Source: Syntrophales bacterium
Lineage (GTDB): Bacteria; Desulfobacterota; Syntrophia; Syntrophales; PHBD01
Length of the DNA stretch: 64,000 nt
Assembly (NCBI GenBank): GCA_963668175.1
Contig: OY764159.1
Location: 3,072,001-3,136,000, forward strand
Direction: 5' to 3'
The notes beneath the pieces are model-generated. The model saw only the letters and a program-made list of their open reading frames with translations. It ran no database searches and was not told the DNA's origin. This document shows positions 32,723-56,379 of the stretch, piece by piece. The stretch's first letter is position 1. Each line of letters opens with the position of its first letter. Both the position numbers and the translations under genes were made by a program.

Positions 32723-32727
32723 CCCAT

Positions 32728-33731: not shown

Positions 33732-33841
33732 ATCGATTATGCCATGTTCTGCCTTGAGCTAGACGTTCGGGACGTCCCTGTCAAGCAAAAAGAATGAAAA
33801 AACGATTGACAGGCCGTCGAAATGCACATATGAAAGCGTCA

Positions 33842-33986
33842 GGATGGATGTGTGGAAGTAGGGTGAAACGCCCTCGCTGCCCCGCAGCCGTAACGGGAAC
33901 GAAAGCCCATGATGTCACTGCCGCGAGCCAATCGCGGTGGGAAGGCGGGCAAGTAGGCCGCCCGGAGCCGGAAGACCTGTCCATCT
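33842..33986 (+). ncRNA. Cobalamin riboswitch
   Basis: GGAA..GGGTGAAA..CCC...CTGCCCCGCAGCCGTAA...CACTG...GGGAAGG...GAGCCGGAAGACCTG; closing helix GATGGA/TCCATC; upstream of btuC. Confidence 0.9.
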
Positions 33987-34010
33987 ATAAGTCCTCGAGG
34001 GAGGAAAAAG

Positions 34011-35063: not shown

Positions 35064-35065
35064 CG

Positions 35066-35896
35066 ATGGCCGTGCTCACCGTGGAAAACGTCTCTTTCCG
35101 ATACCGAAACGACTGGGTCCTCCATGACGTCTCTTTTACCGTCAATCCCGGGGAATTCATCGGCGTCCTGGGTCCCAACGGATCGGGCAAGACCACGCTG
35201 CTCAAGGTCATGGACGGCCTCCTCGAACCGCAGGAAGGTACGGTCATGATCGACGGGCGGCCGATCCGCAAAATGAGCCGGAACGAAGCGGCCCGAATCA
35301 TCGCCGTGGTGCCCCAGGACGCTGAGACGGTTTTTTCCTTCACGGTGGAGGAATTGGTTCTCATGGGCCGGTCGCCCCACCTGGGCATGATGAGCTTCGA
35401 GGGCAGCCGGGATTACCGCGTTGTCGCGCAGGCCCTGGAACTGACGGGTCTTTCCGGACTCGCCGGCCGCCGCCTCAATGCCCTGAGCGGCGGAGAACGC
35501 CAGCGGGTTCTGATCGCCAGAGCCCTGGCGCAGGAGCCCAAGATCCTTCTCCTCGACGAACCGACGGCCTTCCTGGACATCCGCCATCAGGTCGAGATCC
35601 TCGACCTGGCCGGAAACCTGAATAGGACGTCCGGCGTGTCCGTCGTCGCCATTACACACGACATCAATCTGGCGGCCTCCTACTGCAGCCGGATCGCCAT
35701 GCTGAAAGAGGGTTCCGTCCATTGCCTGGGGGCCCCCGAGGTCGTCATCACCGAGGAGCATATCCGCAGCGTTTACGGCATAGACGTTATCGTCGACAAA
35801 CACCCGGTGGCCGCGAGTCCGCGGGTCACCACGATTCGCTCATATCCTTCGGAGCAAGGAAGCCGGTTTGAGTCCGGCGCTGCCCCGCAACTGTAA
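35066..35896 (+). CDS. btuD: Cobalamin/iron-chelate ABC ATPase
   Basis: GPNGSGKTT, LSGGERQRVLIARALAQEP, LLDEPT, THDINLA. Confidence 0.9.
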   Translation: MAVLTVENVSFRYRNDWVLHDVSFTVNPGEFIGVLGPNGSGKTTLLKVMDGLLEPQEGTVMIDGRPIRKMSRNEAARIIAVVPQDAETVFSFTVEELVLMGRSPHLGMMSFEGSRDYRVVAQALELTGLSGLAGRRLNALSGGERQRVLIARALAQEPKILLLDEPTAFLDIRHQVEILDLAGNLNRTSGVSVVAITHDINLAASYCSRIAMLKEGSVHCLGAPEVVITEEHIRSVYGIDVIVDKHPVAASPRVTTIRSYPSEQGSRFESGAAPQL

Positions 35897-35996
35897 GCGG
35901 AACGAAATCCGCAACGGCCACTGGCCGCCGCCAAGGCGGCCGGGAAGGCGCGGAGAGTAGGCGAAAAGCCGCGAGCCAGGAAACTTGTCCGGAGGA
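35845..35996 (+). ncRNA. Cobalamin riboswitch overlapping the btuD 3' end
   Basis: GGAAGCCGGTTTGAGTCCGGC.CTGCCCCGCAACTGTAA...GCCACTGG...CCGGGAAGG...GAGCCAGGAAACTTG; closing helix TCCTTCGGA/TCCGGAGGA. Confidence 0.9.
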
Positions 35997-36036
35997 AAAA
36001 ATAACTTATTTCCCGCGGGGGAAAGGAGAAAAACCT

Positions 36037-38130: not shown

Positions 38131-38180
38131 ACAACGCTTCATGATAAGCGGGCATGAGTCAATGTTTTAAGGAACTGTTC

Positions 38181-39029
38181 ATGACGAAACGATTTATCGC
38201 CTCCGTACTGATTTTCATAATGTCCCTTCCGGTTTTCGGCCGGGCGGAAAATATCCCCCTGGCCGAGAACCTCGGAGCGGAGGCCTTTATCGTCCGCGGC
38301 GTCAAAGACGGCTTATGGGAAAAGACCCTCTTCGTCCGCTTCGGCGAAGCGCGAAGGACCCTGTCGACTTACAGCGGTTTCATCGATGCGGCGGCGGTGA
38401 TCAACCACGCCGCCCATCCTTCCATATGGATCAAGGTGGGCACGGAGATGAAATCCGGCGGGGAAGACGGCGGCAAGGTCTATTTACGGACCGTCAAAAA
38501 GGCCGCCGCCGCGAGATTGGGAACGTCCGCCGACAGGATTGCGGAGATAGGTACCGCCGCCGACATGGACAATCTCGCTGTCGCCGTCAGGACGTTCGGC
38601 CCCATCACGGTCGGCGTCCTGGCGACGGCGGGGGCGAAAACCAATGCCCTCCGTGCCGGCGTCGACGAGGGGACCTTCGTGGAAGGGACCGAACCGGAAG
38701 GCACCGTCAATATCATCGTCCTCACGAACGCCAGGCTTACCGACGGCGCGATGGCGAGGGCCATCGTGACCGTCACCGAAGCCAAGACCGCCGCCTTCGA
38801 GGACCTGCGCGTCCCCAGCAGTTACACGAAAGGCGTACAGGCCACGGGAACGGGCACGGACAGCGTGATCGTCGTATCAGGAAAAACGGGGCCGGCGGTA
38901 ACGTATACGGGGGGACACAGCCGCATCGGCGAATGGATGGCCAAGGCGGTTTACGCGGCCGTAGTCGAGGCCCTGGAGAAGCAGAACGGATTCAGGAGGA
39001 GGCCGGCGCAAACCGCCGGGCAGCCGTGA
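38181..39029 (+). CDS. cbiZ: Adenosylcobinamide amidohydrolase with an N-terminal signal peptide
   Basis: TAADMDN, ATAG...NA.RAG, GTVNII, TEAKTAA, ATGTGTD, GGHSRIGE motifs. Confidence 0.88.
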   Translation: MTKRFIASVLIFIMSLPVFGRAENIPLAENLGAEAFIVRGVKDGLWEKTLFVRFGEARRTLSTYSGFIDAAAVINHAAHPSIWIKVGTEMKSGGEDGGKVYLRTVKKAAAARLGTSADRIAEIGTAADMDNLAVAVRTFGPITVGVLATAGAKTNALRAGVDEGTFVEGTEPEGTVNIIVLTNARLTDGAMARAIVTVTEAKTAAFEDLRVPSSYTKGVQATGTGTDSVIVVSGKTGPAVTYTGGHSRIGEWMAKAVYAAVVEALEKQNGFRRRPAQTAGQP

Positions 39030-39093
39030 TCCGTGCGGCCCGGCAACGCCATGCCGTTAAACGGCATTCCGGCGGGTCGGCCCGCCGCAGGGG

Positions 39094-39858
39094 GTGAAGA
39101 CCATGTATCTATGGCACAAAGAGGGATCGGGTATTCGTCGTGAAGTGACCGCGGCGGCAGCGCTCTCCGTCCTGGCCCATCTCGGGGCGGCCGTCCTGCT
39201 TTACGCCGCCGGGCCCCTATCCGGTTTATCCCTGATCGACAGCGACCCCAGGGTCATTCATGTGACCTGGGTGCATCCAGCCGATACGCCCATCCGCGAA
39301 GCCTCCCCTGTCCGGATCACGGAAAGACGCAGCGATCCACAGACGGCCCGCCTCCATCATCCCCCGAAGATACGGAAGATACAGGAACCGCAGCCCCAAT
39401 CCCCGGTCCGCCAAGAGACGGCGGAGGAGCCGCCTCGGCGTGCCGACACGGGGGTTACGGCCCACTTTACCGCGCCGGCTCCGCCGGCCGGGATACCGGG
39501 GCAGGCGAACAAGCAGGTTGCGGCGCTGTCGCACGGACCGAAGACGGACGGATCGTCCACCCCGGACCAAGCGGCCGTCGCCGCGAAACCGCGCTACGGC
39601 GAAAACGCCCGTCCGTACTATCCGTTGAGCGCCCGCTTGAGGGGGCACGAGGGCGTGGTCGTCATCTCGGCGGAAGTTCTCGCCGAGGGACGGGTGGGCG
39701 CCATGAAGATCAAGGCAAGCTCGGGTCATGACAGCCTCGATCAATCGGCGCTGGAGGCCGTGAAGCAATGGAAATTTGAACCTGGCAAGAGAATGGGGCG
39801 CCCTGTCGCCATGTGGGTGGACATACCCGTCCGATACGTCCTTGCCGGCAGGGATTAA
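39094..39858 (+). CDS. tonB: Energy transducer TonB (second copy)
   Basis: TM with SVLAH, Pro-rich linker, PYYPLSARLRGHEGVV...SSGHDSLDQSALEAVKQWKFEP; start may be 39103. Confidence 0.88.
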   Translation: MKTMYLWHKEGSGIRREVTAAAALSVLAHLGAAVLLYAAGPLSGLSLIDSDPRVIHVTWVHPADTPIREASPVRITERRSDPQTARLHHPPKIRKIQEPQPQSPVRQETAEEPPRRADTGVTAHFTAPAPPAGIPGQANKQVAALSHGPKTDGSSTPDQAAVAAKPRYGENARPYYPLSARLRGHEGVVVISAEVLAEGRVGAMKIKASSGHDSLDQSALEAVKQWKFEPGKRMGRPVAMWVDIPVRYVLAGRD

Positions 39859-44423: not shown

Positions 44424-44460
44424 AAGCGACAAATTCCATATCATGACACAGGGGGATACG

Positions 44461-44823
44461 ATGACAAAGGCGATGATGTTTATACTGCTCGGTCTGGTGA
44501 CAGGTACGCTGAGCGGCCTGATCGGCATCGGCGGCGGAGTAATCCTGGTGCCCGCCCTGATTTTTATTTTCGGCTTCACGATCCACCAGGCCCAGGGAAC
44601 CACCCTGGCCCTCCTGGTCCCGCCCATCGGCATCCTGGCCGCCTGGACCTATTACCGCCAGGGTTATGTCGATCTGCCCGTCGCCGCCTACATCTGCCTT
44701 GGTTTTTTGGCGGGCGGCCTTCTCGGCGCCAAGATCGCCACGAGCATCCCCGGTCACCTGCTGGAAAGGATATTCGGCGTCGCGCTGCTCCTCATTTCGC
44801 TCCGGATGATCTTTTCCCGCTAG
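44461..44823 (+). CDS. Sulfite exporter TauE/SafE family protein (half-size)
   Basis: SGLIGIGGGVILVPAL...HQAQGTTL. Confidence 0.85.
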   Translation: MTKAMMFILLGLVTGTLSGLIGIGGGVILVPALIFIFGFTIHQAQGTTLALLVPPIGILAAWTYYRQGYVDLPVAAYICLGFLAGGLLGAKIATSIPGHLLERIFGVALLLISLRMIFSR

Positions 44824-45050: not shown

Positions 45051-46676
45051 ATGTCTGAAGAAGCATCAGGAAAAGGGATCAGCAGGCGCGGCTTCATCAA
45101 GGCGACGGCGGCCGGCGCAGGTGCCGTGGCGGCCATGGGCCTGGGAGCGACACATGCGGAAGCGAAAATCAACGTCCCGAAGAAATGGGACCGGGAAGCG
45201 GACGTCGTCATTGTAGGATACGGCGGAGCCGGGGCCTGCGCCGCCATCGAGGCCCATGACGCAGGAGCCAAAGTGCTCATCCTGGAAAAATTGAAGGAAA
45301 GCGGAGGCAATACGGGTGTATCCGGCGGCGGCATCCTTTCGCCGGACAACGCGGAAGACGCTTACACCTATATCAGCGGCCTTTACGAATTCTCCCATTC
45401 GGACATGGACAAAGACCTGGTCAGGCTTTACGCCGACGAGTCCGTCAAAAATATCGAATGGGTCAAGTCCCTCAAACCGGGAACAGAATCCCTCATCTAC
45501 GGCGGCGCGGGATATCCCAAGGTGCCCGGCGCCAAATCGATGAAAAAGCACCAGATCGCCGGCGAAGGAAAAGGTTTGCAGGGCAGCTCGAAAAACCTCT
45601 GGAACCTCTTCGTCTATGCCGTCGAGGAAAAACGTAAGATCACCGTGCTTATGGAAACTCCCGCCCAGGAACTCGTCATGAACGCGAACGGCGAAATCGT
45701 CGGCGTCATCGCCAGCGAGAAAGGCAAGAAGATCGCCGTCCGGGCGAAGCGGGCCGTCATCATGACGCTGGGCGGCTACGAGTTTAACACGCAGGACCTC
45801 CAGAACTCCGTCAAGGGCTATCCCATTTATGCCCTGGGCAGCCCCGGCAACACGGGCGACGGCATCCGAATGGCCCAGAAGGTCGGCGCCGGCCTCTGGC
45901 ACATGAACGGTACGTCCTGCCCCCTGGGCATCAAGACGAAAGAGTTCGAGGCGGCCTTCCCCGCCGTGATCGGCACGCCGCGCCACATCATGGTGGACAA
46001 GCACGGCAGCCGTTTCGTCAACGAAAAGGCCGTGGAACTGCATGCGGGGCTCCTCGCGGTGGACCATTTCGACACCCACGCGCTGGAATATCCGCGGATA
46101 CCCTCCTACATCATCTTCGACGAAGTCGCCCGCAAGTCCGGCCCCATCACGGTCCTCGCCGGTATGGGCCATGCGGGCCGGCGGTACAAATGGAGCGGCG
46201 ACAACAGCAGGGAAATCGAAAAGGGCTGGATCCTGAAAGGAGACACGCTGGCGGAACTTGCCGGAAAAATCAAGACGATGAACAAGGAAACGCTGGAGAA
46301 GACGGTAGCCAAATGGAACGAGGACATCGCCAAGGGCGGCGATACGCTCTTCCACCGGCCGATCCGTTCGGGCGACCCGTCGAGTCCCGCCTATAAGGAA
46401 CTGGCCACGGCCCTCTGGTCGGCGCCGATCGACACGCCGCCGTTTTATGCCGTCGAACTTCATCCCGCGCTGCTCAACACCCAGGGCGGACCGAAACGCA
46501 ACACGCGGTCTCAGATGCTCGACGCCTTCGGAAAGCCGATTCCGCGGCTGTACTGCGCCGGAGAGTTCGGCTCCATGTGGGGCATTATTTATCAAGGTGC
46601 GGGTAACATCGGCGAATGCGTCGTTTTCGGCCGGATTGCCGGAAAGAACGCCGCCGCCGAGAAGCCCTGGAAATGA
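45051..46676 (+). CDS. Tat-exported FAD-dependent oxidoreductase (flavocytochrome c / fumarate reductase flavoprotein family)
   Basis: SRRGFIK Tat motif, DVVIVGYGGAG, GGNTGVSGG, GNTGDGIRMA, RFVNE, IPRLYCAGE, FGRIAG. Confidence 0.9.
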   Translation: MSEEASGKGISRRGFIKATAAGAGAVAAMGLGATHAEAKINVPKKWDREADVVIVGYGGAGACAAIEAHDAGAKVLILEKLKESGGNTGVSGGGILSPDNAEDAYTYISGLYEFSHSDMDKDLVRLYADESVKNIEWVKSLKPGTESLIYGGAGYPKVPGAKSMKKHQIAGEGKGLQGSSKNLWNLFVYAVEEKRKITVLMETPAQELVMNANGEIVGVIASEKGKKIAVRAKRAVIMTLGGYEFNTQDLQNSVKGYPIYALGSPGNTGDGIRMAQKVGAGLWHMNGTSCPLGIKTKEFEAAFPAVIGTPRHIMVDKHGSRFVNEKAVELHAGLLAVDHFDTHALEYPRIPSYIIFDEVARKSGPITVLAGMGHAGRRYKWSGDNSREIEKGWILKGDTLAELAGKIKTMNKETLEKTVAKWNEDIAKGGDTLFHRPIRSGDPSSPAYKELATALWSAPIDTPPFYAVELHPALLNTQGGPKRNTRSQMLDAFGKPIPRLYCAGEFGSMWGIIYQGAGNIGECVVFGRIAGKNAAAEKPWK

Positions 46677-46700
46677 AAGTGACCCGTTTATGACTGAAAA

Positions 46701-46744
46701 CGGGGGACCGGTCCCATTGCGGGCCCGGTCCCCCGCCTGTTTTT
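46701..46744 (+). terminator. Strong intergenic hairpin (terminator or stability element)
   Basis: 11-bp stem CGGGGGACCGG/CCGGTCCCCCG followed by CCTGTTTTT. Confidence 0.6.
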
Positions 46745-46763
46745 CCTTAAGGAGTATTTGGAT

Positions 46764-47144
46764 ATGAAAATGGAACATCCCCGATTCCGGAAGGCCGGCA
46801 TGGTCCTGGCAGCCGCTTGTGTTCTCCTGTTGACTGTCTTCTGGCAGGGTTCGTCTTACGGCGGTCCCGAAGAGAAAAAATTTCTCGCCGACCGGCACCA
46901 GGCCAAGGGCATTGCCTGCGCCTCCTGCCACAAGGAAAACCCGCCCAAGGCGGCGGTGCCCATGGCGGTCTGCCTCGGCTGCCACGGCTCGTACGAAAAA
47001 GTGGCCTCCAGAACGCTCAAGGCCTCGCCCAATCCCCACGCGTCCCATATGGGCGAACTGGCGTGCGAGAACTGCCACCACGCCCACAAGGCGTCGGCAA
47101 GCCAGTGCAATACGTGTCACGAGTTCAACATGAAGATGCGTTGA
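46764..47144 (+). CDS. Small periplasmic tetraheme cytochrome c
   Basis: Signal peptide; CASCH, CLGCH, CENCH, CNTCH; NPHASH. Confidence 0.92.
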   Translation: MKMEHPRFRKAGMVLAAACVLLLTVFWQGSSYGGPEEKKFLADRHQAKGIACASCHKENPPKAAVPMAVCLGCHGSYEKVASRTLKASPNPHASHMGELACENCHHAHKASASQCNTCHEFNMKMR

Positions 47145-47192
47145 TGCATGCCCCGCGTTTTTTGAACATAAAATCCTTTCGGGAAGGGAAGG

Positions 47193-47642
47193 ATGGATAA
47201 GATCGATTACCGGCGACTGACCTCGCCCTGCGGCCTGGACTGCTTCAATTGCCGGGCGTATCTCGCCTGCGGGGACCCGGACCTCCGGGCGGATATATCC
47301 TCCCGGCTCGGTTTGCCCGCCGATAAGGCCAAATGCGAAGGATGCCGGAATGCCGGCGGGGTCATCGCATTCCAGGGTGACTGCGAACCCTGCGCCGTTT
47401 TTCGCTGCACGGCGGACAAGAGGATTTCCTTCTGCTTCGAATGCGGCGACTTTCCCTGCGACCTGCTGCATCCTTACGCCGACCAGGCGTCCGTCCGCCC
47501 CCACAACACCAAACTCTTCAACCTCTGTCTGATCAGGAAGATGGGAATCGACCGGTGGGCGGCGGAAAAGGCGCGGGCGGTAAGGGAAACCTATTTCCTG
47601 GGCAGGCTCCGCGTCCACGCCGCCGACAAGGAGAAGCCTTAG
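47193..47642 (+). CDS. DUF3795 Cys-rich protein
   Basis: SPCGLDCFNC...CEGCR...C.VF.C...FCFECGDFPC. Confidence 0.8.
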   Translation: MDKIDYRRLTSPCGLDCFNCRAYLACGDPDLRADISSRLGLPADKAKCEGCRNAGGVIAFQGDCEPCAVFRCTADKRISFCFECGDFPCDLLHPYADQASVRPHNTKLFNLCLIRKMGIDRWAAEKARAVRETYFLGRLRVHAADKEKP

Positions 47643-47871: not shown

Positions 47872-49344
47872 ATGAGCAATCGGCAGGCGGACATGAGGGA
47901 CGAAGACAAGACCAGAGAAGAGCTCGTCCGGGAAATGGCGGAAATGCGCCGTTACATCGCCGGACTGGAAAAGACGGATGCCGATCACAGAAAAGCGGCT
48001 GAGGCGCTGATTGAATCGGAATGGAAATTCTCGGCCGCCTTCCGGTACAGCCCTGTCTCCATCGCCATGACGGCACCCTTCTCGGGCCGAATCATCGATG
48101 TCAACGACACTTTCCTCCAAGATATGGAATATACGAGGGAAGAGGTCATCGGTCGCACAACGATCGAACTGGGCATTTTCGCAGACATCGAAGACCGCTC
48201 CCGCCTCATCGACGAACTGAAGGCACAGAAATTCGTCTTCGGCTATGAGTGCCGCTTCCGGACGAAATCGGGCCGTATCCGCACAAGCATCTTGTCCATT
48301 ACGTTTTTACCGGTCAAAGGCGAAATCGTCCAGCTTTCCATCGGCATCGATATCACCGAACGCAAGCTGATGGAGGAGGCCCTCCGGGAGAGCGAAGAGA
48401 AATACCGGACGGTCGTGGAAAAAGCCAACGAGGCCATCGTCATCGCCCAGGACGGGAAACTGGCCTATGTGAACCCCAAGCTCGCCGCCGTTATGGGAGT
48501 CACCATTGAAGAACTCACCGGCATGCCCTTTGTGGAACTCATCCACCCGGACGACCGGGCCATGGTGATGGACTGCTACCGGCGGAGGCTCGACGGCGAG
48601 GATGTTCCCGATTGTTACGAATTCAGGGTAATGGGCAGGGAACACGAGCTCATCTGGTTTTATATTTCCGCCCAGAAAATCCTGTGGAACGGCAGGCCGG
48701 CGACGCTCAACCTGCTCACGGACATCACGGAACGGAAACGGGCGGAAGAGGCGCTCCGGGAGAGCGAAACGATGTTCCGAAACCTCTTCGAACAGCATGC
48801 CGCCATCAAGTTCATCATCGACCCGGACGACGGTTCCATCGTCGATGCCAACGCCCGGGCAGCGGAATTCTACGGCTGGACGCGGGACCAGTTCCGCCGG
48901 ATGAAGATTCAGGACATCAATATCCTGTCGCCCGAAGAAGTAAAACGGGAAATGGAAAACGCCAGGTCCAACAAACGCATTCATTTCGATTTCCGTCACA
49001 GGCTTGCGGATGGTTCCATCCGGGACGTGGAAGTCTACAGCAGCATGATCGATGCCAAGGGGAAAGCGCTCCTGCACTCCATCATTCACGACGTCACCGA
49101 GCGCAAGCGCCTGGAGAAAGAGCGGGAGGGGCTCATTGAGAGCCTCCGGAAGGCCCTTTCGGAAATCAAGCAATTGAGCGGGCTCCTGCCGATCTGCTCC
49201 TCCTGCAAGAAGATCCGCAACGACGAAGGGTATTGGGAACAACTGGAAATATACATCAAGAACCACTCGGACGCGGACTTCAGTCACGGCATATGCCCGG
49301 AATGCGTGGCCAGACTGTATCCCGACCTGAAAAAAGATCCGTGA
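47872..49344 (+). CDS. Multi-PAS sensor protein with C-terminal Cys/His zinc-finger-like domain and no kinase domain
   Basis: Three PAS/PAC units; LLPICSSCKKIRNDEGYW...FSHGICPEC. Confidence 0.85.
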   Translation: MSNRQADMRDEDKTREELVREMAEMRRYIAGLEKTDADHRKAAEALIESEWKFSAAFRYSPVSIAMTAPFSGRIIDVNDTFLQDMEYTREEVIGRTTIELGIFADIEDRSRLIDELKAQKFVFGYECRFRTKSGRIRTSILSITFLPVKGEIVQLSIGIDITERKLMEEALRESEEKYRTVVEKANEAIVIAQDGKLAYVNPKLAAVMGVTIEELTGMPFVELIHPDDRAMVMDCYRRRLDGEDVPDCYEFRVMGREHELIWFYISAQKILWNGRPATLNLLTDITERKRAEEALRESETMFRNLFEQHAAIKFIIDPDDGSIVDANARAAEFYGWTRDQFRRMKIQDINILSPEEVKREMENARSNKRIHFDFRHRLADGSIRDVEVYSSMIDAKGKALLHSIIHDVTERKRLEKEREGLIESLRKALSEIKQLSGLLPICSSCKKIRNDEGYWEQLEIYIKNHSDADFSHGICPECVARLYPDLKKDP

Positions 49345-50606
49345 AGAAAACGTCTTCGGTACGGCCTATGATGACCCGGCGCACATTTTTACGGACATTG
49401 GCAAGGGTCGCCCCGGTTCTCGGCGGCGCGGGATTGATTCTTTCCGGTCCCTTCCGGAATTATCCCTGGCCTGTCGGACCCGAAGTCGCCTGGGGGGGCA
49501 CCGCCGCGGCCGACCTGCTCCGTTCGGCCCCGATGGCGCGATACTGGACATCCGCCGACTCGCCCGATGCCGATTGCCGTGCCTGCCATACCGATGCCGG
49601 CCGGATCAGAGGCCGGAAATACGTCCATAAGGACAGGATTGTCAAATGCCTCCTCTGCGCGCAGGCCTGTGTGATCGCCGAAGGCCGGCGGGGGAAGTGC
49701 CGCGTGCGGGTGAATGTCGGCGGCGAACTTAAAACGCTTTCTTACGGCCGCCCCGTCTCCATCCATACCGACCCGATCGAGAAGAAGCCCCTCTTCCATT
49801 ACCTGCCGGGATCGGAAGCCTTTTCACTCGCCACGGCAGGATGCCCCCTGCGCTGCAAATTCTGCCAGAACTGGCAGATATCCCAGGCCTCCCCCGAAGA
49901 CTTCGATACGCCCCTCACGCCGCCGTCCGGCATCGTCGGCTCCGCCCGGTCCGAAAAGGCGCCCGTCATCGCCTTTACATACAACGAGCCCACGGTCTTT
50001 ACCGAATACCTGACGGATATCGCCCGGGATGCCGGAAAACACGCCATCCGTTCCGTCCTGATCAGCTGCGGCTTCATGAACGAGGCGCCCCTTGCGGAAA
50101 TGTGCCGGGTGCTCGACGCCATCAAGATCGATCTCAAGGGCTTCAGCGAGGATTTTTACCGCAATGCCTGCGGGGCCGAACTCAAGCCCGTCCTCCGCAG
50201 CATCAAGCAGATCGCCAAAAGCCGCGTCCACCTGGAAATCGTCAACCTCGTCGTCCCGACGCTGAACGATTCGGACCGGATGATTTCCGGGCTCGTCGAT
50301 TGGGTCCTGGGCGAAGTCGGGCCCGACATCCCCGTTCATTTCACCCGCTTCCATCCGGACTATCAGCTCCTGAATCTCCCGCCCACGCCCGTCGCAACAC
50401 TTTCGAACGCCCGCGACCTGGCCCTCGCCAGGGGCATGCACTATCCCTACGTGGGGAACGTGCCGGGTCATCCCGGGAACCACACTTACTGCCCGAGCTG
50501 TAAAAAGATCGTGATCGAGCGCCAGGGGTTCTTCGTCACGGCGATGAACGTCAAGGACGGGCGCTGTAAATTCTGCCGGCGTAAAATCGCCGGCGTCTGG
50601 GCTTAG
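49341..50606 (+). CDS. amrS: AmmeMemoRadiSam system radical SAM enzyme with Tat-like signal peptide
   Basis: DPIEKKPLFHYLPG, GCPLRCKFCQNWQISQ, AFTYNEP, HFTRFHPDY, YVGNVPG, TYCPSC; TRRTFL; start 49341 (GTG) or 49368. Confidence 0.92.
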   Translation: MKKTSSVRPMMTRRTFLRTLARVAPVLGGAGLILSGPFRNYPWPVGPEVAWGGTAAADLLRSAPMARYWTSADSPDADCRACHTDAGRIRGRKYVHKDRIVKCLLCAQACVIAEGRRGKCRVRVNVGGELKTLSYGRPVSIHTDPIEKKPLFHYLPGSEAFSLATAGCPLRCKFCQNWQISQASPEDFDTPLTPPSGIVGSARSEKAPVIAFTYNEPTVFTEYLTDIARDAGKHAIRSVLISCGFMNEAPLAEMCRVLDAIKIDLKGFSEDFYRNACGAELKPVLRSIKQIAKSRVHLEIVNLVVPTLNDSDRMISGLVDWVLGEVGPDIPVHFTRFHPDYQLLNLPPTPVATLSNARDLALARGMHYPYVGNVPGHPGNHTYCPSCKKIVIERQGFFVTAMNVKDGRCKFCRRKIAGVWA

Positions 50607-50618
50607 AAGGAGGATGCC

Positions 50619-52157
50619 ATGAAGACCATGCAATGGAGTCTGACGCTTTTGGCTGTCAGCCTTTGTTTCGCCGTGGCCTGCCGGGCCGACAAAACGAAGG
50701 ACGCATCCATCCGTGATCCGGTGGTCGCCGGCAAGTTCTATTCCGCCACCGCCGCCAAGCTTAGACTGGGCATCGAGAAATTCATGCAGGACGCCCTGCC
50801 CGCTAGGGTTGGAAATCCCGTCGCCATCGTTGTGCCCCACGCAGGCTATATCTATTCCGGCCAGATCTGCGCCGACGGGTTCCGCCAGGCGGCGAACGGC
50901 AAATACGATACCGTCGTCATCCTCGGAACGAATCATACGAACGGCTCATTCCGGAAGGTCTCCCTCTATCCGGGCGGCGGTTTCCGCACCCCCCTGGGGG
51001 ACGTGCCGGTGGACAGGGACATTGTTGCCGCCCTGATCGCGGCGGCTCCCGAGGATTGCGTTTCCGACAAATCGCTCCATGCATCGGAGCATTCCGTCGA
51101 GGTCATGGTGCCCTTTATCCAGGTCGTTTTTCCCAAGGCGAAGATCGTGCCCGCCGTTGTCGGGTCGTCCGATCCGGAAATCACGGCCCGCTTCGGCCGG
51201 GCCCTGGCCAAAGTTTTAAAGAACAAACGGGCTCTGATCGTTGCCAGTTCCGATCTTTCCCACTATCCGGCGGCGGACGCCGCCGCCGTTGTCGACCGCG
51301 AGACGCTGGCGGCCATAGCCGGATTCGACCCCGCCGCCTTCCGGAAGGTCGCCGGGGCACGACCGGCCAAGGCCGTTTCCGAACTCCACACGCGGGCCTG
51401 CGGCGAAGCCCCGATCCTCGCCGCCATGGAAGCCGCACGCGCCCTGGGCGCCGTTCGCGGCGAGGTGATCAGTTATGCCCATTCGGGAGATGTATCCGTC
51501 GGCGACCGCTCGCGGGTGGTCGGTTACGGCGCCGTCGCTTTTACAGCAGAAGCGAAAGGCAAAGACGGCGCAACGGCAGCAGTACCCGCGCCAGTCGCCT
51601 CATCCTCCCCTCTCCGGCCTGAGGACAAGAAAGCACTTCTGGCTTTTTCCCGGGAAACCCTGTCCCGCATCTTCCTTACGGACACGGTGCCCCTGGCGAG
51701 GGGCTTTACTCCTAACTTACGGGAAACGCGGGGCGTTTTCGTGACCCTCAAGAAGAAGGGAGAACTGCGGGGCTGTATCGGCCGCATCGTCGGCGACGGC
51801 CCCCTGGACGAACTGGTCGGCACCATGACGCTCCAGTCGGCCTTCAGCGACAGTCGCTTCGATCCGCTTGCCCCGGCGGAACTTAAGGAAATCGAGATCG
51901 AAATCTCCGTTCTGACGCCCCTCATGGAAGTGTCTTCTCCCGCCGCCATCGTCGCCGGCCGTGACGGCGTTCTGCTCATCAAAGGGCGCCATTCCGCGGT
52001 CTTCCTGCCGCAGGTGGCAACGGAACAGGGATGGAACAGGGAAGTAATGCTCGACCACCTCTGCCGCAAGGCCGGGCTTCCGCCGGGAAGCTGGAAGGAG
52101 GGGGCGCGCTTGCAGGTTTTTCAGGCGGATGTGTTCGGCGAATCGGATTTCAGATAA
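50619..52157 (+). CDS. amrB: Fused AmmeMemoRadiSam protein B (MEMO) - protein A (AMMECR1) with signal peptide
   Basis: R.PVVAGKFY, VPHAGYIYSG, EHSVEV, ASSDLSHY, VVGYGA; then GVFVTL....LRGCIG, DSRF, EISVL, FLPQVA, KAGL. Confidence 0.92.
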   Translation: MKTMQWSLTLLAVSLCFAVACRADKTKDASIRDPVVAGKFYSATAAKLRLGIEKFMQDALPARVGNPVAIVVPHAGYIYSGQICADGFRQAANGKYDTVVILGTNHTNGSFRKVSLYPGGGFRTPLGDVPVDRDIVAALIAAAPEDCVSDKSLHASEHSVEVMVPFIQVVFPKAKIVPAVVGSSDPEITARFGRALAKVLKNKRALIVASSDLSHYPAADAAAVVDRETLAAIAGFDPAAFRKVAGARPAKAVSELHTRACGEAPILAAMEAARALGAVRGEVISYAHSGDVSVGDRSRVVGYGAVAFTAEAKGKDGATAAVPAPVASSSPLRPEDKKALLAFSRETLSRIFLTDTVPLARGFTPNLRETRGVFVTLKKKGELRGCIGRIVGDGPLDELVGTMTLQSAFSDSRFDPLAPAELKEIEIEISVLTPLMEVSSPAAIVAGRDGVLLIKGRHSAVFLPQVATEQGWNREVMLDHLCRKAGLPPGSWKEGARLQVFQADVFGESDFR

Positions 52158-52300
52158 CCGGGACGAAGAAAAGGCCTTCGGGCTTGAGTTGTGCGGCAGG
52201 CCCGGTGCCTGACCGTTCGCCGCCATCCGCCTCCTTATACTATCCCTGCGGAAGCCGTCACCGGTTCCCGGGGTGTCCTCATGAAAATATGCGATAGACC

Positions 52301-54487
52301 ATGACGGTACCTCTTCTCTCCATCGGACTGATTTCGATCCTGGCCCAGGTCGTCATACTCCGGGAATTGAACGTCGCCCTCTACGGGATTGAGCTCGTCT
52401 ACCTTTTCGCGCTGGGCCTCTGGCTGCTCTGGACGGCGGCGGGGGCCGTGGCCGGCGGCTTTGTCCGCTCCCCGTCCCGACGGGATATGGCGGCCTTCTT
52501 CATCCTCTTCGGACTGATTCTTCCCGGCGATATCGTCTTCATCCGGGGCAGCCGTCTTCTTTTCGGCGGTATGTCCGGAACCTACCTGTCCTTTTTCCAG
52601 CAGCTCACCGTGGCCGCTCTCTCGCTTCTGCCGGCGGGCTTCCTGTCCGGCGTGCTTTTCCAATGGACGGCCAGGGCCTATATCGAACCTAACCGGACGC
52701 TGGCCGCCGCCTATGCCGTCGAGAGCGCCGGTGGACTCATCGGCGGCCTTTTGTCGACCCTCTTTCTATACGTCGGTCTCGCGAACCTCGGCATCGCCCT
52801 GGTTTGCTCACTCGTTGCCGCTCTCACACCCCTGGCGTTGACAGCCAGACAGCCGTCCGTTCTCGGCAAGGCCAGGAAACCGGTATTCCTGAAGCTGGCG
52901 GCCATTCTCCTGGCCTGCGCCAGCCTTGCCCTCCTTTGGCAATCGCCCAACCTGGACCGCAGGCTGAACCGCTGGAACCACCCGGACCTCCTGGAAAGCA
53001 ACGATTCCCCCTACGGCCGGATCACCATGACCCGCCTCCAGGACCAGGTCTCGGTCTTCGAAAACGACGCCCTCGCCTTCGAAACGGAAGGGACCGAGGC
53101 CGAAGCCTTCTGCCATTTGGCGGCCCTCCAGCATCGGAACCCGCGGGAAATCCTCATCCTGGGGGGCGGCATCGAAGGGCTCGTCCGGGAGGCGCTGAAA
53201 CACCGGCCGCAACGGATCGACTATGTCGAACTGAATCCCGTACTCCTCGATCTCGTAACCCGCCACCTCCCCCAGGACATCGGAGCGTCCCTGAAGGCGC
53301 CCAACGTCAGGACCACGGTCGCCGATCCCCGGCGATACCTCCGGACAAGCGGCACCTACGACCTTATCCTCGTCGGCATGCCGGAGCCGGCGTCGGGCCA
53401 GGCCAACCGCTTTTACACGCGGGAGTTCTTCGTCCAATGCGCGGCAAAGCTGAAGCCGGGCGGCATCCTGGCCTTCCGTCTCCGCACGGCGGAGAACCTC
53501 TGGCCCCTGCCCCTCGTTCGCCGGAATGCAAGCATCTACCGCGCACTCCAGGCCGTCTTTCCCCATGTCCTCTTCCTGCCGGGAACGACGAACATCGTAA
53601 CCGCCTCGCGCGCGGCCCTGCCGGATGCGCCGGAGGTCATGTCCGGCCGCCTGCAGGAACGGAGAATCGCGACGCGGCTCGTATCGGCAAACTATATCCG
53701 GTATCTCTTCACCAACGACCGATTCGCCGCCATCCGGGACCTGCTTCAAAAGGGAACGGCGCCGCCCAACACGGACATAAGGCCCGTCTGCTACCAGTAC
53801 GCCTTCGTAATCTGGCTTTCCAAATTCTTCCCCGGCCTCACCCAGGCGGACCCGACCGCCATTATCGACAAGGGACTTTTTCATTCGCCCTTCGTGTGGT
53901 TTGCGGGATTGGCCCTTCCCGTTCTCTTTCTTCTCAGCCGCCTGCGGCCCGGCTTCCGCCGCCTCCTCCTTGTCGCGGTATCCGGTTTTCTCGGTATGGT
54001 CGCAGAGACGGTCCTCATTCTCTACTACCAGGTCAAATACGGGGTCCTCTACCGGGACATCGGCCTTCTCCTCATGAGCTTCATGGCGGGACTGGCCCTC
54101 GGGGCCCTGGCGATGAACCGCCTGATGGACCGGCCGTTCGGCGGACTCAAGAAGCCGCGCAGGTACGGCGCAGCGACGCTCGCCGGCTTCGCCCTCCTCT
54201 GCGCGTATCTGGCCTGGACCGTCTCCGGCAGTGCCGCCGCGGGACTGGTGCATACATCCATCTTGCTCTTTTCGGCAGGACTTTTCGTCGCGGCGATCTT
54301 CTCCTACGCGGCCCTCCATGAAATCGAAGACCAGACCCGGATCATCGGCCCGTTCTATGCCGCAGACCTCGCAGGCGGATGCATGGGCTCGCTCATGGCC
54401 AGCCTGGTCTTTATTCCATTGACCGGCATGGATACGTCGGCAATGGGAATGCTCTTTCTTGCCGTTCTTTCGGTATTGCTGATCTAG
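52301..54487 (+). CDS. Membrane protein with spermidine-synthase-like SAM-binding domain (fused MFS-like/SpeE family)
   Basis: N- and C-terminal TM bundles; DSPYG, ILILGGG, YVELNP, NRFYTREFF, LKPGG, YAADLAGG. Confidence 0.85.
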   Translation: MTVPLLSIGLISILAQVVILRELNVALYGIELVYLFALGLWLLWTAAGAVAGGFVRSPSRRDMAAFFILFGLILPGDIVFIRGSRLLFGGMSGTYLSFFQQLTVAALSLLPAGFLSGVLFQWTARAYIEPNRTLAAAYAVESAGGLIGGLLSTLFLYVGLANLGIALVCSLVAALTPLALTARQPSVLGKARKPVFLKLAAILLACASLALLWQSPNLDRRLNRWNHPDLLESNDSPYGRITMTRLQDQVSVFENDALAFETEGTEAEAFCHLAALQHRNPREILILGGGIEGLVREALKHRPQRIDYVELNPVLLDLVTRHLPQDIGASLKAPNVRTTVADPRRYLRTSGTYDLILVGMPEPASGQANRFYTREFFVQCAAKLKPGGILAFRLRTAENLWPLPLVRRNASIYRALQAVFPHVLFLPGTTNIVTASRAALPDAPEVMSGRLQERRIATRLVSANYIRYLFTNDRFAAIRDLLQKGTAPPNTDIRPVCYQYAFVIWLSKFFPGLTQADPTAIIDKGLFHSPFVWFAGLALPVLFLLSRLRPGFRRLLLVAVSGFLGMVAETVLILYYQVKYGVLYRDIGLLLMSFMAGLALGALAMNRLMDRPFGGLKKPRRYGAATLAGFALLCAYLAWTVSGSAAAGLVHTSILLFSAGLFVAAIFSYAALHEIEDQTRIIGPFYAADLAGGCMGSLMASLVFIPLTGMDTSAMGMLFLAVLSVLLI

Positions 54488-54638
54488 AGAGGCGCCGGGT
54501 CGAACCGCGCCCCTGACGCCGCCTTTAACCGGGTTTGATAATCGTTTGGCTTTCTTTCTTCCTCTTATCTGGTATGATGATTACAAGTACATTTACAATC
54601 CGGACGGGGACTTTTCTTTTGGCGGAGAACGGAAGACC

Positions 54639-55421
54639 ATGGACCGATTCCCGGAAAAGCAGGTGACGATAGACTTCTTTAAGGCCGTATGGCCTGCATT
54701 TGCCGCTCAGGCCGTCATTCTGCTCGTCCCATTGTTTTTCCAGGAGTTCTCTCTTCAATCCGGAACCAGGTCGGTCTGGATGGTCATCTTTCGCTTCCTG
54801 CGTCTTTCGGTCTTCCTGCTCGTGCCGATCCTGTTCCTACGCAGGATTCTCGCTCTCGCCGGTTCCCTGTTTCAGATCGGCGCACGGGAGCTGGTCCAGA
54901 TTCGGCAGGAAAGCATGGAGAAGATATCGCCTCTCAAAAACTGGCTGCTCAGGCCGCTCCAGGGAATCGGCGTTTCCATGCTCGTCGCGACAAAATTGAT
55001 CGTGCTTCTGGAGATATACAGCGGCGAAGGTATTGCGGCATCCGTCTTCCTGCCCCCGCCGATGTTCAGCCTGCAGAGATTTTTCGTGACGGCCGCCATG
55101 GCCTTCGCCGTTTCCTTGGTGCTGTCCTCTCTGTGGACCCTGGAGGACCTCGGCATTCGCTTGTATAACCGGAAAACCCGTGAAATCCGGAAGATCGGCA
55201 AATACTTCGGCCTGATCCTTCCTCTTGTTCTCGGGTTCTACGGACTGATGAGTCTTTCCCATACCCACGCCACGGCCATGGCCATACGATACTTCATAAT
55301 GATGGCCATGATCCTTTATCCGCCGTTTCTGATCCTCAACGTTTTTCATGCCTTTTATATCAACAGAAACGAAAACCGTCTGCTTACAGTCCTGCGTGTG
55401 AAAGCGAAAATGGCCCTCTAA
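54639..55421 (+). CDS. Hypothetical multi-pass membrane protein
   Basis: Open frame with about six hydrophobic segments. Confidence 0.65.
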   Translation: MDRFPEKQVTIDFFKAVWPAFAAQAVILLVPLFFQEFSLQSGTRSVWMVIFRFLRLSVFLLVPILFLRRILALAGSLFQIGARELVQIRQESMEKISPLKNWLLRPLQGIGVSMLVATKLIVLLEIYSGEGIAASVFLPPPMFSLQRFFVTAAMAFAVSLVLSSLWTLEDLGIRLYNRKTREIRKIGKYFGLILPLVLGFYGLMSLSHTHATAMAIRYFIMMAMILYPPFLILNVFHAFYINRNENRLLTVLRVKAKMAL

Positions 55422-55695: not shown

Positions 55696-56379
55696 GTGAA
55701 AACAACCGTTTTTCTAATGTCGTTGATTCTTCTCACCCTGTTGGGATGCGCGGGAAACATCCGGAACATATCGGCCGCCTACGATCCGGCCGAATCGGTC
55801 ATTGTAGGCCATATCCAGACTGTCCCCATCCTATGGGACTTTATCCTCTACGACGAGAAGAACCATCGGGAGAACTCCGTCGAAATCGCCGGACCCGGTT
55901 ACGGCCTGACCAAGGCCGGCCAACTCCAGAACCGGGGCTATATCTTCAAGATGATCCGCGCCGGCTCGTACATGCTCCGTCTTCGGAAAGTGAGCGGCGG
56001 CGATTACGCATACGACGATATCCTGCGCTTCGATATTCCGCCGGGGACATTGATCTATTTCGGCACAATCAAAGTTGTGGTCGACCAGGTCATGATGGAT
56101 CCATCCGGATCGCGCCCAGGCGGCCGCAGCCAGGCGCCCCTGATGTTCAGGTACCGCTTCGTCGGCGCCGATGAGGACGATACGCTGCAGCAGTTTGCGA
56201 AGCAGTACCCCGGGATTTACGAGGCCTACAAGTCGCGCATCGTCCGCATCCAGTCCCACTCCCCTTCGCGCCGCCCCAAGGAGTATATTTATCTTCCCGC
56301 CGCGCCGTCCCTGGCCTCTCTGACCTTGAGACCTCGGGGATCGGGCGCGCCGCATATCGCCAAGGAGGTTTCACCATGA
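55696..56379 (+). CDS. Hypothetical lipoprotein
   Basis: Lipobox LLGC after a hydrophobic stretch; GGGGA RBS. Confidence 0.7.
   Translation: MKTTVFLMSLILLTLLGCAGNIRNISAAYDPAESVIVGHIQTVPILWDFILYDEKNHRENSVEIAGPGYGLTKAGQLQNRGYIFKMIRAGSYMLRLRKVSGGDYAYDDILRFDIPPGTLIYFGTIKVVVDQVMMDPSGSRPGGRSQAPLMFRYRFVGADEDDTLQQFAKQYPGIYEAYKSRIVRIQSHSPSRRPKEYIYLPAAPSLASLTLRPRGSGAPHIAKEVSP

Follow-up and report, generated by a model that had tools for sequence, protein, structure and literature searches.

Genes and features of the amrS locus

The window, by which we mean the whole 64-kb stretch of DNA that was analyzed, contains three adjacent genes on one strand, separated by gaps of 12 and 143 bases, which encode AmrS, a Memo-AMMECR1 fusion, and a membrane protein for which we coin the name SpeM. 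No convincing terminator was seen between them. The first gene, amrS (49368..50606, + strand), encodes an AmmeMemoRadiSam radical SAM enzyme (TIGR04337, PF04055) of 412 amino acids, of which about 87 form an N-terminal extension. The protein scored 360.3 bits against TIGR04337 (cutoff, 220 bits), and the match began only at residue 87 of the 412-amino-acid form. The radical SAM motif CX3CX2C (C159/C163/C166) was invariant in 31 sequences, and further cysteines were conserved in the alignment (C94/C97/C111 and C375/C378/C400 invariant, C403 in at least 90%). The closest solved fold to the AF2 model (pLDDT, 88.9) was that of PflA (3CB8; TM, 0.79; E, 1.9e-15), with the next family at 3e-8. The second-tier NCBIfam matches were all glycyl-radical activases, and all scored far under their cutoffs.

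The amrS open reading frame spans positions 49233 to 50606, and the extension reads MMTRRTFLRTLARVAPVLGGAGLILSG. The initial annotation had placed the start at a GTG that overlaps the upstream gene (49341), and the ATG at 49368, 27 bases downstream, is the better candidate. Twin-arginine translocation (Tat) signals carry the motif [ST]-R-R-x-F-L-K near the N terminus, followed by a weakly hydrophobic core. In the putative Tat signal of AmrS (about residues 1 to 44; 49368..49499, + strand), TRRTFLR precedes a Gly-rich core of weak hydrophobicity, then a basic residue and VAWG. Residues 3 to 9 (T-R-R-T-F-L-R) fit the consensus, no 19-residue window of the leader reaches a Kyte-Doolittle value of 1.5, and the model has a helix at residues 4 to 25 and then disorder at residues 28 to 43. 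The twin-arginine leader recognized in the initial annotation is kept among homologs, with M-x-[ST]-R-R found within a few residues of the annotated start in 117 of the best 120; of the other three, one has a long 5' extension and two have truncated starts. R4 and R5 were invariant in alignment A1, the rows of which had been picked for having the motif. AmrS is thus a predicted Tat substrate with a canonical twin-arginine leader.

The extension also contains a CxxCH motif (C70-R-A-C-H74) which, with a conserved H87, forms a candidate covalent heme c site (49575..49628, + strand). The motif occurred in 81 of 120 homologs, including all 78 with a long insert, none of the 37 with a short insert, and 3 of 5 that were unclassified. 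It stays constant while its flanks vary, and the commonest spacing places a His at +13 after it. Residues 75 to 84 have low pLDDT in the model, as is expected of a cofactor-dependent loop. Heme maturation at CxxCH occurs only outside the cytoplasm, and the candidate site would address the reductant problem of an exported AmrS. It may instead be a Cys2-His metal site, and the missing insert in 37 of 120 close homologs means that the heme is not essential to the system. The accessible text of PMC4429474 provides a precedent for a Tat leader and heme c in one protein, the Split-Soret cytochrome c. The initial annotation mentioned neither the heme c motif nor how widely the leader-bearing clade extends.

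The second gene, an amrB-amrA fusion (50619..52157, + strand), encodes 512 amino acids with a Memo domain at residues 34 to 305 (PF01875, 210 bits; TIGR04336, 251.6 bits against a cutoff of 26) and an AMMECR1 domain at residues 343 to 506 (PF01871, 167 bits; TIGR04335, 162.2 bits against a cutoff of 99). The signal peptides of bacterial lipoproteins terminate in a lipobox, the Cys of which is invariant. The N terminus of the fusion (MKTMQWSLTLLAVSLCFAVAC) has its hydropathy maximum at residues 3 to 21, and the leader ends in ...LCFAVA-C21, with Ala rather than Leu at position -3. The Sec/lipoprotein leader proposed earlier for this protein corresponds to this putative lipoprotein-type signal ending at Cys21.

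The third gene, speM (52301..54487, + strand), encodes 728 amino acids arranged as seven helices, a SpeE-fold domain at about residues 226 to 524, and seven more helices. The AF2 model (pLDDT, 88.7; pTM, 0.89) contains 14 long helices, and residues 266 to 391 match PF01564 above the cutoff (65.9 bits), in agreement with the earlier description of a multispan protein with a spermidine synthase-like domain reading ILVGMPEP. SpeM exceeded the cutoff for fused MFS/spermidine synthases (NF037959; 46.2 bits versus 40) and fell under those of the SpeE equivalogs (TIGR00417, 79.1 versus 249.6; NF002010, 87.6 versus 260; NF002956, 105.9 versus 472). TM1-6 are homologous to TM9-14 (hhalign probability, 98.7%; E, 1.5e-15), which suggests that the membrane part is a permease-like 6+6 internal repeat. 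The Pfam MFS models gave no match, and a PDB fold search returned SpeE-type structures only among the matches listed (ranks up to 50), with no match to the membrane domain. Loops assigned to the cytoplasm had a Lys-plus-Arg count of 18.4, as against 2.4 for those across the membrane, with the same bias in 46 of 46 sequences. By this positive-inside count, which bears on the question that had been raised about the topology of the SAM domain, the soluble domain is predicted to lie outside.

That domain (52976..53872, + strand), predicted to face the periplasm, lacks the catalytic Asp. Its best PDB match was a Thermus aminopropyltransferase (1UIR; sequence E, 2.5e-19; fold TM, 0.76), and the match at that TM covers the whole SpeE fold, with its N-terminal beta domain. 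The nucleotide-binding residues are kept (G288 in 44, E310 in 39, and D342 in 44 of 46 sequences). ILVGMPEP aligns where the Thermus SpeE has IIDLTDP; the first Asp of the SpeE D-[ST]-x-D-P loop, which we take to be the catalytic base, corresponds to position 359 of SpeM. This residue is G359 in SpeM, and the six commonest residues in 46 rows were G (18), N (12), S (6), A (3), H (2), and R (2), none of them Asp or Glu. The second acidic residue of the loop, position 362, was E or D in 32 of 46. The suggestion that SpeM methylates is unlikely, since it has a SpeE-type fold, no methyltransferase family match, and no catalytic Asp.

Leaders and gene neighborhoods in related loci

Related loci were taken as the best 80 of at least 600 pattern matches. 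They span many phyla and lie mostly on the window's side of the family, and so only three truly leaderless AmrS loci were available as a control. Leaders were called with our own scripts on motif and hydropathy. A Tat-like or hydrophobic leader was present on 72 of the 80 AmrS genes. The scripts assigned these best 80 to 47 TatRR, 20 hydrophobic, 12 without leader, and 1 at a contig edge; by eye, there were 48 RR, 3 KR, 21 hydrophobic, 4 split, 3 without leader, and 1 at an edge. Memo-AMMECR1 had a hydrophobic leader, often ending in Cys, in 36 of the 38 copies that could be evaluated in the same best 80, and one of the two leaderless exceptions is a fused AmrS-Memo-AMMECR1 (L078).

SpeM lay near AmrS in 45 of these best 80 loci and near none of the three leaderless ones. 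Among those flanked by 4 kb or more on each side, it was present in 27 of 43 and not found in 16 of 43. The cooccurrence of leader-bearing AmrS with leader-bearing Memo-AMMECR1 and with SpeM, the examination of which had been proposed with the initial annotation, was thus observed. Within the 16 closest loci among the matches listed, the order AmrS, Memo-AMMECR1, SpeM held in 11 of 11 with at least 4 kb downstream; the genomes were of Syntrophales type or from Latescibacterota, Acidobacteriota, Ignavibacteriaceae, Melioribacteraceae, and Aminicenantes. In Omnitrophota, Planctomycetota, Elusimicrobia, Lentisphaerae, and other groups, SpeM adjoins AmrS as well, at 25 to 31% identity and in both orientations. 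The scripts found 18 of the best 80 loci with SpeM beside AmrS and no Memo-AMMECR1 nearby, two of which (L057 and L061) have an AMMECR1 fragment at the contig end. Because the leaders and gene order are conserved in other phyla, chance can be ruled out.

Some loci deviate from this pattern. In L022, L039, and L070, the leader module has an open reading frame of its own, which shares an ATGA overlap with a leaderless AmrS core; the junction is the same in all three, and L019 has a stop there. The leaderless core of such split loci should stay cytoplasmic unless it is carried out bound to a partner. About 21 of the best 80 loci have Sec-like or anchor-like AmrS leaders; Sec-like leaders are at odds with current knowledge of how Fe-S clusters are inserted and count against an exported enzyme. 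In L068, L071, L053, and L028, Arg clusters follow the hydrophobic leader.

Other relatives are fused to further domains. P0248 and P0256 consist of one N-terminal helix, an FMN_bind domain with the flavinylation motif D-x-x-SGAT, and the AmrS core, with no helix between; in P0253 and P0254, a leader is followed by CBM_11 or a beta-propeller and then AmrS; and in P0251, P0257, and P0270, AmrS lies behind NosR-like modules. FMN_bind, Fer4_5, and DsbD_2 modules were found fused to or beside AmrS relatives. Flavinylated proteins work in extracytosolic redox systems (Meheust et al. 2021, PMC8238504), and the term "radical SAM" does not occur in the accessible text of that paper. In a FastTree phylogeny of AmrS (131 rows; midpoint rooted only; deep split support of 83, without a star), all 32 Tat rows and 15 membrane or hydrophobic rows sit in one 61-row half, and 65 rows, canonical forms of AmrS, have no extension and start directly at the core.

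A possible exported AmmeMemoRadiSam cassette

We consider it somewhat better than an even chance that amrS, amrBA, and speM form one cassette, a version of AmmeMemoRadiSam that works outside the cytoplasmic membrane in a diderm anaerobe, with periplasmic electron donors and SpeM as a dedicated partner. Several independent sequence-level lines support an outside location of AmrS and Memo-AMMECR1 and agree with the periplasmic variant first suggested for this locus: the Tat consensus, the CxxCH motif, the partner leaders, the outward SpeE-like domain, and the relatives' fusions to extracytosolic-type domains. Such a location would be undescribed for radical SAM chemistry. The four split loci, the Sec-like leaders of some relatives, and the lack of SpeM in 16 of 43 loci (among the best 80) weigh against this reading. 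A literature search, beyond the reach of which lay one key 2019 paper, returned no published description of an exported AmmeMemoRadiSam variant and no match to "periplasmic radical SAM" and like phrases. The window contains no Tat or Ccm genes, which for a stretch of only 64 kb is uninformative.

It is conceivable, if rather unlikely, that AmrS is a single-turnover activase which is exported by Tat with SAM bound and reduced once through its heme, and that it leaves a periplasmic protein, for example the Memo-AMMECR1 lipoprotein, with a stable radical or a single modification. No outside supply of SAM would then be needed, and SpeM would have some other task, for example the transport or presentation of a cationic or lipid substrate. 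The AmrS fold, closest by far to PflA, which was solved with a peptide substrate (1.9e-15 versus 3e-8), and the second-tier matches to glycyl-radical activases fit this scheme, as does the fact that the Tat pathway exports folded proteins with their cofactors loaded. That 16 of 43 well-covered loci (among the best 80 of at least 600) lack SpeM likewise fits a nonobligatory role. However, the scheme leaves unexplained both a periplasm-facing SpeE-fold domain with kept nucleotide-binding residues and the adjacency of SpeM to AmrS where Memo-AMMECR1 is not nearby (18 script loci of the best 80), and it fails for relatives with Sec-like leaders.

A smaller chance is given to membrane-tethered proteins with cytoplasmic catalytic domains, whose N-terminal segments would serve as anchors and which would draw both SAM and reductant from the cytoplasm, as all known radical SAM enzymes do. 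The four loci (among the best 80) with a leaderless core beside a separate leader module are in its favor, and the Arg clusters after the leaders of four others favor a C terminus inside. NosR-type proteins have their Fe-S domain on the cytoplasmic side, and three relatives carry AmrS behind such modules. Against tethering, [ST]-RR-x-F-L before a core of weak hydrophobicity directs export by Tat and is not a retaining anchor, and it is widespread (48 RR and 3 KR of the best 80 loci; RR in 117 of 120 homologs); CxxCH matures only outside the cytoplasm; Memo-AMMECR1 has lipoprotein-type leaders; the SpeM domain lies outside by the positive-inside count in 46 of 46 sequences; and two relatives join AmrS straight to a flavinylation-type domain. 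It is very improbable that SpeM is no more than an atypical polyamine aminopropyltransferase or exporter, placed next to amrS only through shared SAM-related metabolism or inherited order. Although PF01564 is matched above its cutoff, position 362 is acidic in 32 of 46 sequences, and the full SpeE fold with its N-terminal beta domain is present (TM, 0.76), the SpeE equivalog models all score far under their cutoffs (79/250, 88/260, and 106/472), the first loop Asp is mainly G, N, or S with no acidic residue among the six commonest in 46 rows, and the domain lies across the membrane from the dcSAM pool of the cytoplasm. Inherited order alone is also insufficient to explain adjacency at 25 to 31% identity across phyla and in both orientations.

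For the preferred reading, an exported cassette, the sequences suggest the following scheme. AmrS would fold and be loaded with Fe-S clusters in the cytoplasm, be exported by Tat, and receive a covalent heme at CxxCH in the periplasm, where the heme would be the point of electron entry from the periplasmic cytochrome pool, replacing flavodoxin or ferredoxin. The Memo-AMMECR1 fusion would be exported by Sec and anchored by a lipid. SpeM would be the dedicated partner, with its periplasm-facing SpeE-fold domain held between permease-like halves; this domain keeps the residues for the adenosyl part of SAM-type ligands and lacks the base for aminopropyl transfer. We know of no SAM outside the cytoplasm. 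Only tentatively, SpeM might transfer SAM to the periplasm and keep it bound for AmrS, or it might retrieve 5'-deoxyadenosine or methionine. The substrate of the AmrS system is most likely an envelope component (a lipid or isoprenoid, the wall, or a periplasmic protein). A broader proposal, which we regard as possible though doubtful, is that an AmrS clade of more than 10 phyla leaves the cytoplasm, through Tat and in certain lineages apparently through Sec, and is fed by heme c, flavinylated FMN, NosR/NapH-like, or DsbD_2 modules, with the SpeM domain supplying SAM. If true, SAM export would have to be regulated, and Sec-type members would have to acquire their Fe-S clusters in the periplasm.

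Comparison with known systems

To our knowledge, all characterized radical SAM enzymes work in the cytoplasm, with ready access to SAM, low-potential reductants, and Fe-S assembly, and none of the Tat-exported Fe-S and heme redox proteins, such as the Split-Soret cytochrome c, is a radical SAM enzyme. A conserved multiphylum clade of exported AmrS would break this rule and would raise the question of how SAM, electrons, and clusters get to the periplasm. It would also offer a handle on the function of the AmmeMemoRadiSam trio, pointing to an envelope substrate rather than nucleic acid; human homologs of the Memo and AMMECR1 domains are linked to disease. The canonical system (TIGR04337 AmrS, TIGR04336 AmrB, and TIGR04335 AmrA) has the same three domains that are adjacent and above curated cutoffs here. 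The locus in the window differs in the 87-residue extension of AmrS with its Tat signal and CxxCH, in the fusion of AmrB to AmrA behind a lipoprotein-type leader, and in the attachment of a fourth conserved gene product, SpeM.

PflA (3CB8 and 8FO0) is the closest solved fold to AmrS (TM, 0.79 to 0.82) and the closest solved sequence (E, 1.4e-06), and both have a partial TIM-barrel radical SAM core. Unlike AmrS, PflA is cytoplasmic, has 245 amino acids, and lacks a leader, a heme motif, and the N-terminal C-x2-C-x13-C and C-terminal Cys4 motifs. The NF037959 fusions and PRK03612, a membrane-anchored aminopropyltransferase against which SpeM scored 106 bits (cutoff, 472), also join a SpeE-fold domain to a multihelix membrane domain. 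SpeM differs from both in lacking the catalytic Asp and in having an outward domain between homologous six-helix halves, with two extra helices flanking it. By title or abstract start, the literature search yielded nothing on how MFS/spermidine synthase fusions are oriented in the membrane or on what they do, and the cassette gives context to such uncharacterized membrane proteins. The Split-Soret cytochrome c resembles AmrS in having a Tat leader and CxxCH on a cofactor-loaded protein (accessible text of PMC4429474). Finally, the extracytosolic flavinylated modules (FMN_bind, NosR/NapH-like, and DsbD-like; accessible text of PMC8238504) are those fused to or beside AmrS relatives, whereas the AmrS of the window has a heme c motif instead.

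Organization of the amrS cassette and its leaders

Three closely spaced genes on the plus strand make up the AmmeMemoRadiSam cassette of the window: amrS (49368-50606), encoding the radical SAM enzyme of the trio; a fused amrB-amrA gene encoding Memo-AMMECR1 (50619-52157); and a gene for a 728-aa membrane protein with a SpeE-fold domain, here called SpeM (52301-54487). All three family models of the system exceeded their curated cutoffs (TIGR04337, 360 versus 220, for AmrS; TIGR04336, 252 versus 26, and TIGR04335, 162 versus 99, for the fusion). SpeM matched the spermine/spermidine synthase domain PF01564 with 65.9 bits over residues 266-391 and the subfamily "fused MFS/spermidine synthase" with a score of 46.2 versus a cutoff of 40; against the SpeE equivalog models, it fell far below the cutoff in every case. 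No convincing terminator was detected in the intergenic gaps of 12 and 143 bases. The nearest named relatives were in Syntrophaceae and Smithella-type genomes.

The TIGR04337 match on AmrS opens at residue 87 and is preceded by an extension that begins MMTRRTFLR. An M-x-[ST]-R-R-x-[FLI] start was found in 117 of the 120 best AmrS homologs (65 to 92% identity); of the other three, one carries a long 5' extension and two are truncated. Because of this conservation, the start of amrS was placed at ATG 49368 and that proposed in the initial annotation, 49341, was rejected; the twin-arginine leader proposed there was borne out by the same consensus. The core of this leader is weakly hydrophobic, with no 19-residue window reaching a hydropathy of 1.5, and a basic residue comes after it; these are both classical traits of the twin-arginine (Tat) export pathway. 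The leader predicted for Memo-AMMECR1 likewise held up, being strongly hydrophobic and ending in Cys21. Leaders, often Cys terminated, were present in 36 of 38 Memo copies from the best 80 of at least 600 related loci (39 matches were examined, and one cut by a contig end, in L060, was dropped). The two exceptions were a second Memo copy in L037 (9461-10282), which lies next to a leader-bearing one, and, in L078, the Memo portion of an AmrS-Memo-AMMECR1 fusion protein that is leaderless throughout.

Co-occurrence and leader classes in related loci

Related loci were obtained by scanning species-representative genomes with an AmrS alignment and keeping, by similarity, the best 80 of at least 600 matches, a sample that is incomplete and biased to the window's side of the AmrS family. 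Gene presence near AmrS was scored by tblastn and open reading frame (ORF) clustering, and the names DsbD_2 and DUF362 were taken from Pfam. The co-occurrence of leader-bearing AmrS, Memo-AMMECR1, and SpeM that the initial annotation proposed to check was found in this sample, with SpeM near AmrS in 45 of 80 loci (27 of 43 when both flanks had to reach 4 kb or more) and Memo-AMMECR1 in 38; a DsbD_2 membrane protein was nearby in 17 loci and a Tat-leader DUF362 protein in 11. Among the 16 closest loci, 11 extend 4 kb or more downstream, and every one of them has the three genes in the window's order; by record title, these 11 belong to at least six phyla. In the remaining 5, the sequence ends within 1.8 kb downstream. 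At 25 to 31% identity, SpeM adjoins AmrS, in one orientation or the other, in Omnitrophota, Planctomycetota, Elusimicrobia, Lentisphaerae, and Zixibacteria. By script, 18 of the 80 loci had SpeM without a nearby Memo-AMMECR1, and two of these (L057 and L061) carry an AMMECR1 fragment at the contig end. Only three of the 80 loci were truly leaderless, and none had SpeM, a control too small to weigh. Tandem copies of AmrS were seen in L064 (7562-9966) and L073 (8872-11157).

In the same 80 loci, AmrS leaders were assigned by script and by eye, respectively, to a Tat RR class (47 and 48), a hydrophobic non-RR class (20 and 21), no leader (12 and 3), and a contig edge (1 and 1); a KR variant (3) and a split leader (4) were scored by eye only. 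DsbD_2, which has Cys motifs in two helices (e.g., L054, 11700-12353, and L042, 2890-3558), tracked the hydrophobic class (16 of 20 versus 1 of 47 RR loci by script; 17 of 21 versus 0 of 48 after L037 and L033 were reclassed). This tight linkage of a thiol-reductant conduit to hydrophobic AmrS leaders is suggestive. The Tat-leader DUF362 gene lies upstream of AmrS and was confined to the RR class. Many leaders of the hydrophobic class resemble cleavable Sec signals; a Sec-type leader on AmrS would require Fe-S insertion after export, which is not known to occur.

Four loci initially read as leaderless were dropped from that class, since other frames encode a separate leader module. In L022 (5221-5433), L039 (2205-2441), and L070 (428-2029), the module is its own ORF and shares an ATGA stop-start overlap with the leaderless AmrS core that follows; in L019 (about 8917-9030), it ends in a TAA stop at the same junction. 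The split point is constant, lying a few residues ahead of the first Cys motif of AmrS. The L070 ORF encodes a complete NosR-like protein (leader, FMN_bind, CX3CP helices, and two ferredoxin motifs, followed by RR, a last helix, and a tail). The Tat pathway can co-export a bound partner in a "hitchhiker" mode, and it is conceivable that the AmrS core of L070 is exported in this way, bound to the NosR-like tail; the same is not conceivable for L022, because its module has a Sec-type leader.

Leaders recur in the wider AmrS family. A pattern search flagged an RR leader in 32 of the 150 best 50%-identity representatives, a count inflated by a few false calls and blind to RK variants. Among the 43 longest representatives, Pfam identified N-terminal fusions to DsbD_2 (P0242, P0252, and P0270), to FMN_bind with or without a NapH/NosR-type Fer4_5 domain (P0248, P0251, P0257, and P0270), to CBM_11 (P0253), and to a beta-propeller (P0254), along with many leaderless C-terminal Memo/AMMECR1 fusions. 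In P0248 and P0256, one N-terminal helix is followed by FMN_bind with a D-x-x-SGAT flavinylation motif and then by the AmrS core, with no helix between. Flavinylated proteins serve extracytosolic redox systems, according to excerpts of PMC8238504, and these two fusions therefore place the AmrS core outside. In a FastTree phylogeny of 131 AmrS cores, all 32 Tat rows and all 15 membrane or hydrophobic rows fell in one half of 61 rows and none in the other 70, a split with a support of 83 (unstarred) under midpoint rooting only. P0377, a relative without a leader, is joined to a flavodoxin-FAD-NAD reductase and looks like a self-sufficient cytoplasmic form; in P0304, P0332, and P0372, an intein interrupts the radical SAM core, in two cases together with a LAGLIDADG homing-endonuclease domain.

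Across the window as a whole, gene content is that of an ordinary diderm chromosome and includes an RND efflux system with its outer-membrane factor, genes for TonB-dependent receptors, and genes for cobinamide salvage. Positions 26081-39858, with two sets of a TonB-like protein and a TonB-dependent receptor, ABC transporter genes, CbiQ, a periplasmic binding protein, and CbiZ, look like a corrinoid uptake and salvage region. A 126-aa ORF (44443-44823) aligns with no more than the opening half of the TauE/SafE sulfite-exporter profile (positions 2-110 of 237); the gene is either half-size or truncated. Upstream of amrS, a flavocytochrome-c/FAD reductase-like protein with its own Tat leader (SRRGFIKATAAGAGAVAAMGLGATHAEA), a tetrahaem cytochrome c3-type protein, and a DUF3795 protein (45051-47642) look like a periplasmic reductase module. 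They are followed by a three-PAS-domain protein without a kinase domain (47872-49344), which has a Cys-rich tail (LPICSSCKKIRND...HGICPECV), stops 23 bases ahead of amrS, and is not conserved beside AmrS elsewhere. As parts of the system, the PAS protein and the reductase-module genes were rejected: in the best 80 of at least 600 loci, the PAS protein gave only weak PAS-to-PAS matches (L014 and L034), and the three reductase-module genes gave none. Also rejected, with no match in these 80 loci, were a 291-aa multi-helix membrane protein (54546-55421) and a 227-aa lipoprotein-like protein with a leader ending in LLGC (55696-56379), neither of which matched a Pfam or NCBIfam family.

A candidate haem-c motif in AmrS and the predicted topology of SpeM

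Between its leader and its catalytic core, AmrS carries a CxxCH motif (C70-R-A-C-H74), with a further His 13 residues on (H87), that the initial annotation missed. Covalent attachment of haem is known to take place only outside the cytoplasm, which makes the motif an independent line of evidence that AmrS is exported. CxxCH was present in 81 of the 120 best homologs, comprising 78 of 78 with a long insert, 0 of 37 with a short one, and 3 of 5 unclassed by pattern, and the residues flanking it vary freely. In the AlphaFold2 (AF2) model of AmrS, confidence is high for the core (pLDDT, 88.9) and drops at residues 75-84, which are poorly modeled. The motif is a plausible entry point for electrons; it may instead be a plain metal site. 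A precedent for a predicted Tat leader on a haem-c protein is the Split-Soret cytochrome c, as described in part of PMC4429474.

In the confident AF2 model of SpeM (46 sequences; pLDDT, 88.7; pTM, 0.89), a soluble domain at about residues 226-524 is flanked on each side by seven long helices. Lys and Arg in the short loops average 18.4 on one side of the membrane versus 2.4 on the other, in the same direction in all 46 aligned sequences, and the soluble domain is assigned to the outside because it sits on the K/R-poor side; this gives a predicted orientation for the domain whose topology the initial annotation had left for checking. By hhalign, helices 1-6 align with helices 9-14 as homologs (probability, 98.7%; E, 1.5e-15), which makes the membrane part a probable 6+6 parallel repeat, a layout like that of MFS permeases. 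Helix 7, the outward domain, and helix 8 form a hairpin inserted in its central loop. A PDB fold search matched the soluble domain alone among the matches listed (ranks up to 50), and an ESM Atlas search returned same-family clusters only.

The domain is a complete SpeE fold (1UIR; TM, 0.76 by structure; E, 2.5e-19 by sequence). It keeps the glycine motif (G288 in 44 of 46 sequences), the acidic residue ending strand 2 (E310, 39 of 46), and D342 (44 of 46), the latter two at positions that we take to hold ribose and adenine. At the first Asp position of the D-x-x-D-P loop, G, N, and S predominate, and the six commonest residues in the 46 rows include no acidic one; the second position carries E or D in 32 of 46. 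The kept nucleotide positions and the lost loop Asp make it probable that the domain binds an adenosyl ligand without being a standard aminopropyltransferase.

Alternative readings and relation to known systems

We favor, with moderate confidence, an exported variant of AmmeMemoRadiSam in which electrons would enter through a haem c on AmrS and SpeM would be a dedicated partner. Several observations fit it poorly: four loci encode the leader module apart from a leaderless AmrS core, many leaders of the hydrophobic class look Sec-like, the haem motif is missing from 37 of 120 close AmrS homologs, and SpeM is not nearby in every locus. Taken alone, the proposal of the initial annotation that SpeM supplies SAM is tentative. 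A clearly less probable reading shares the export and makes AmrS a single-turnover activase that carries its own SAM out; its PflA-like fold (3CB8, E of 1.9e-15 versus 3e-8 for the next family) speaks for this. That the system is instead tethered to the membrane and faces the cytoplasm seems improbable: both the CxxCH motif and the fusions with a flavinylation motif point outward. Least probable is that SpeM is an unrelated polyamine enzyme, with its SpeE fold in favor and its altered loop and its recurrence beside AmrS against.

Literature on periplasmic or twin-arginine radical SAM proteins yielded PMC10924467, in excerpts of which a radical SAM gene is merely a neighbor; an excerpt of the MEMO1 review PMC7694686 does not mention bacterial systems, and titles and opening lines of abstracts on membrane-bound spermidine synthases offered nothing relevant. 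The papers retrieved for the name AmmeMemoRadiSam use it once each, never in the title or abstract, and no published description was found of the exported variant, the haem motif, the electron-supply fusions, or the SpeM partner in a search that lay outside Burroughs et al. 2019 (J Biol Chem). That study reportedly covers Memo-AMMECR1 gene contexts and links the system to nucleotide-base and isoprenoid modification, and it may be the likeliest prior mention of leaders or membrane partners. The AmmeMemoRadiSam family itself is already known.
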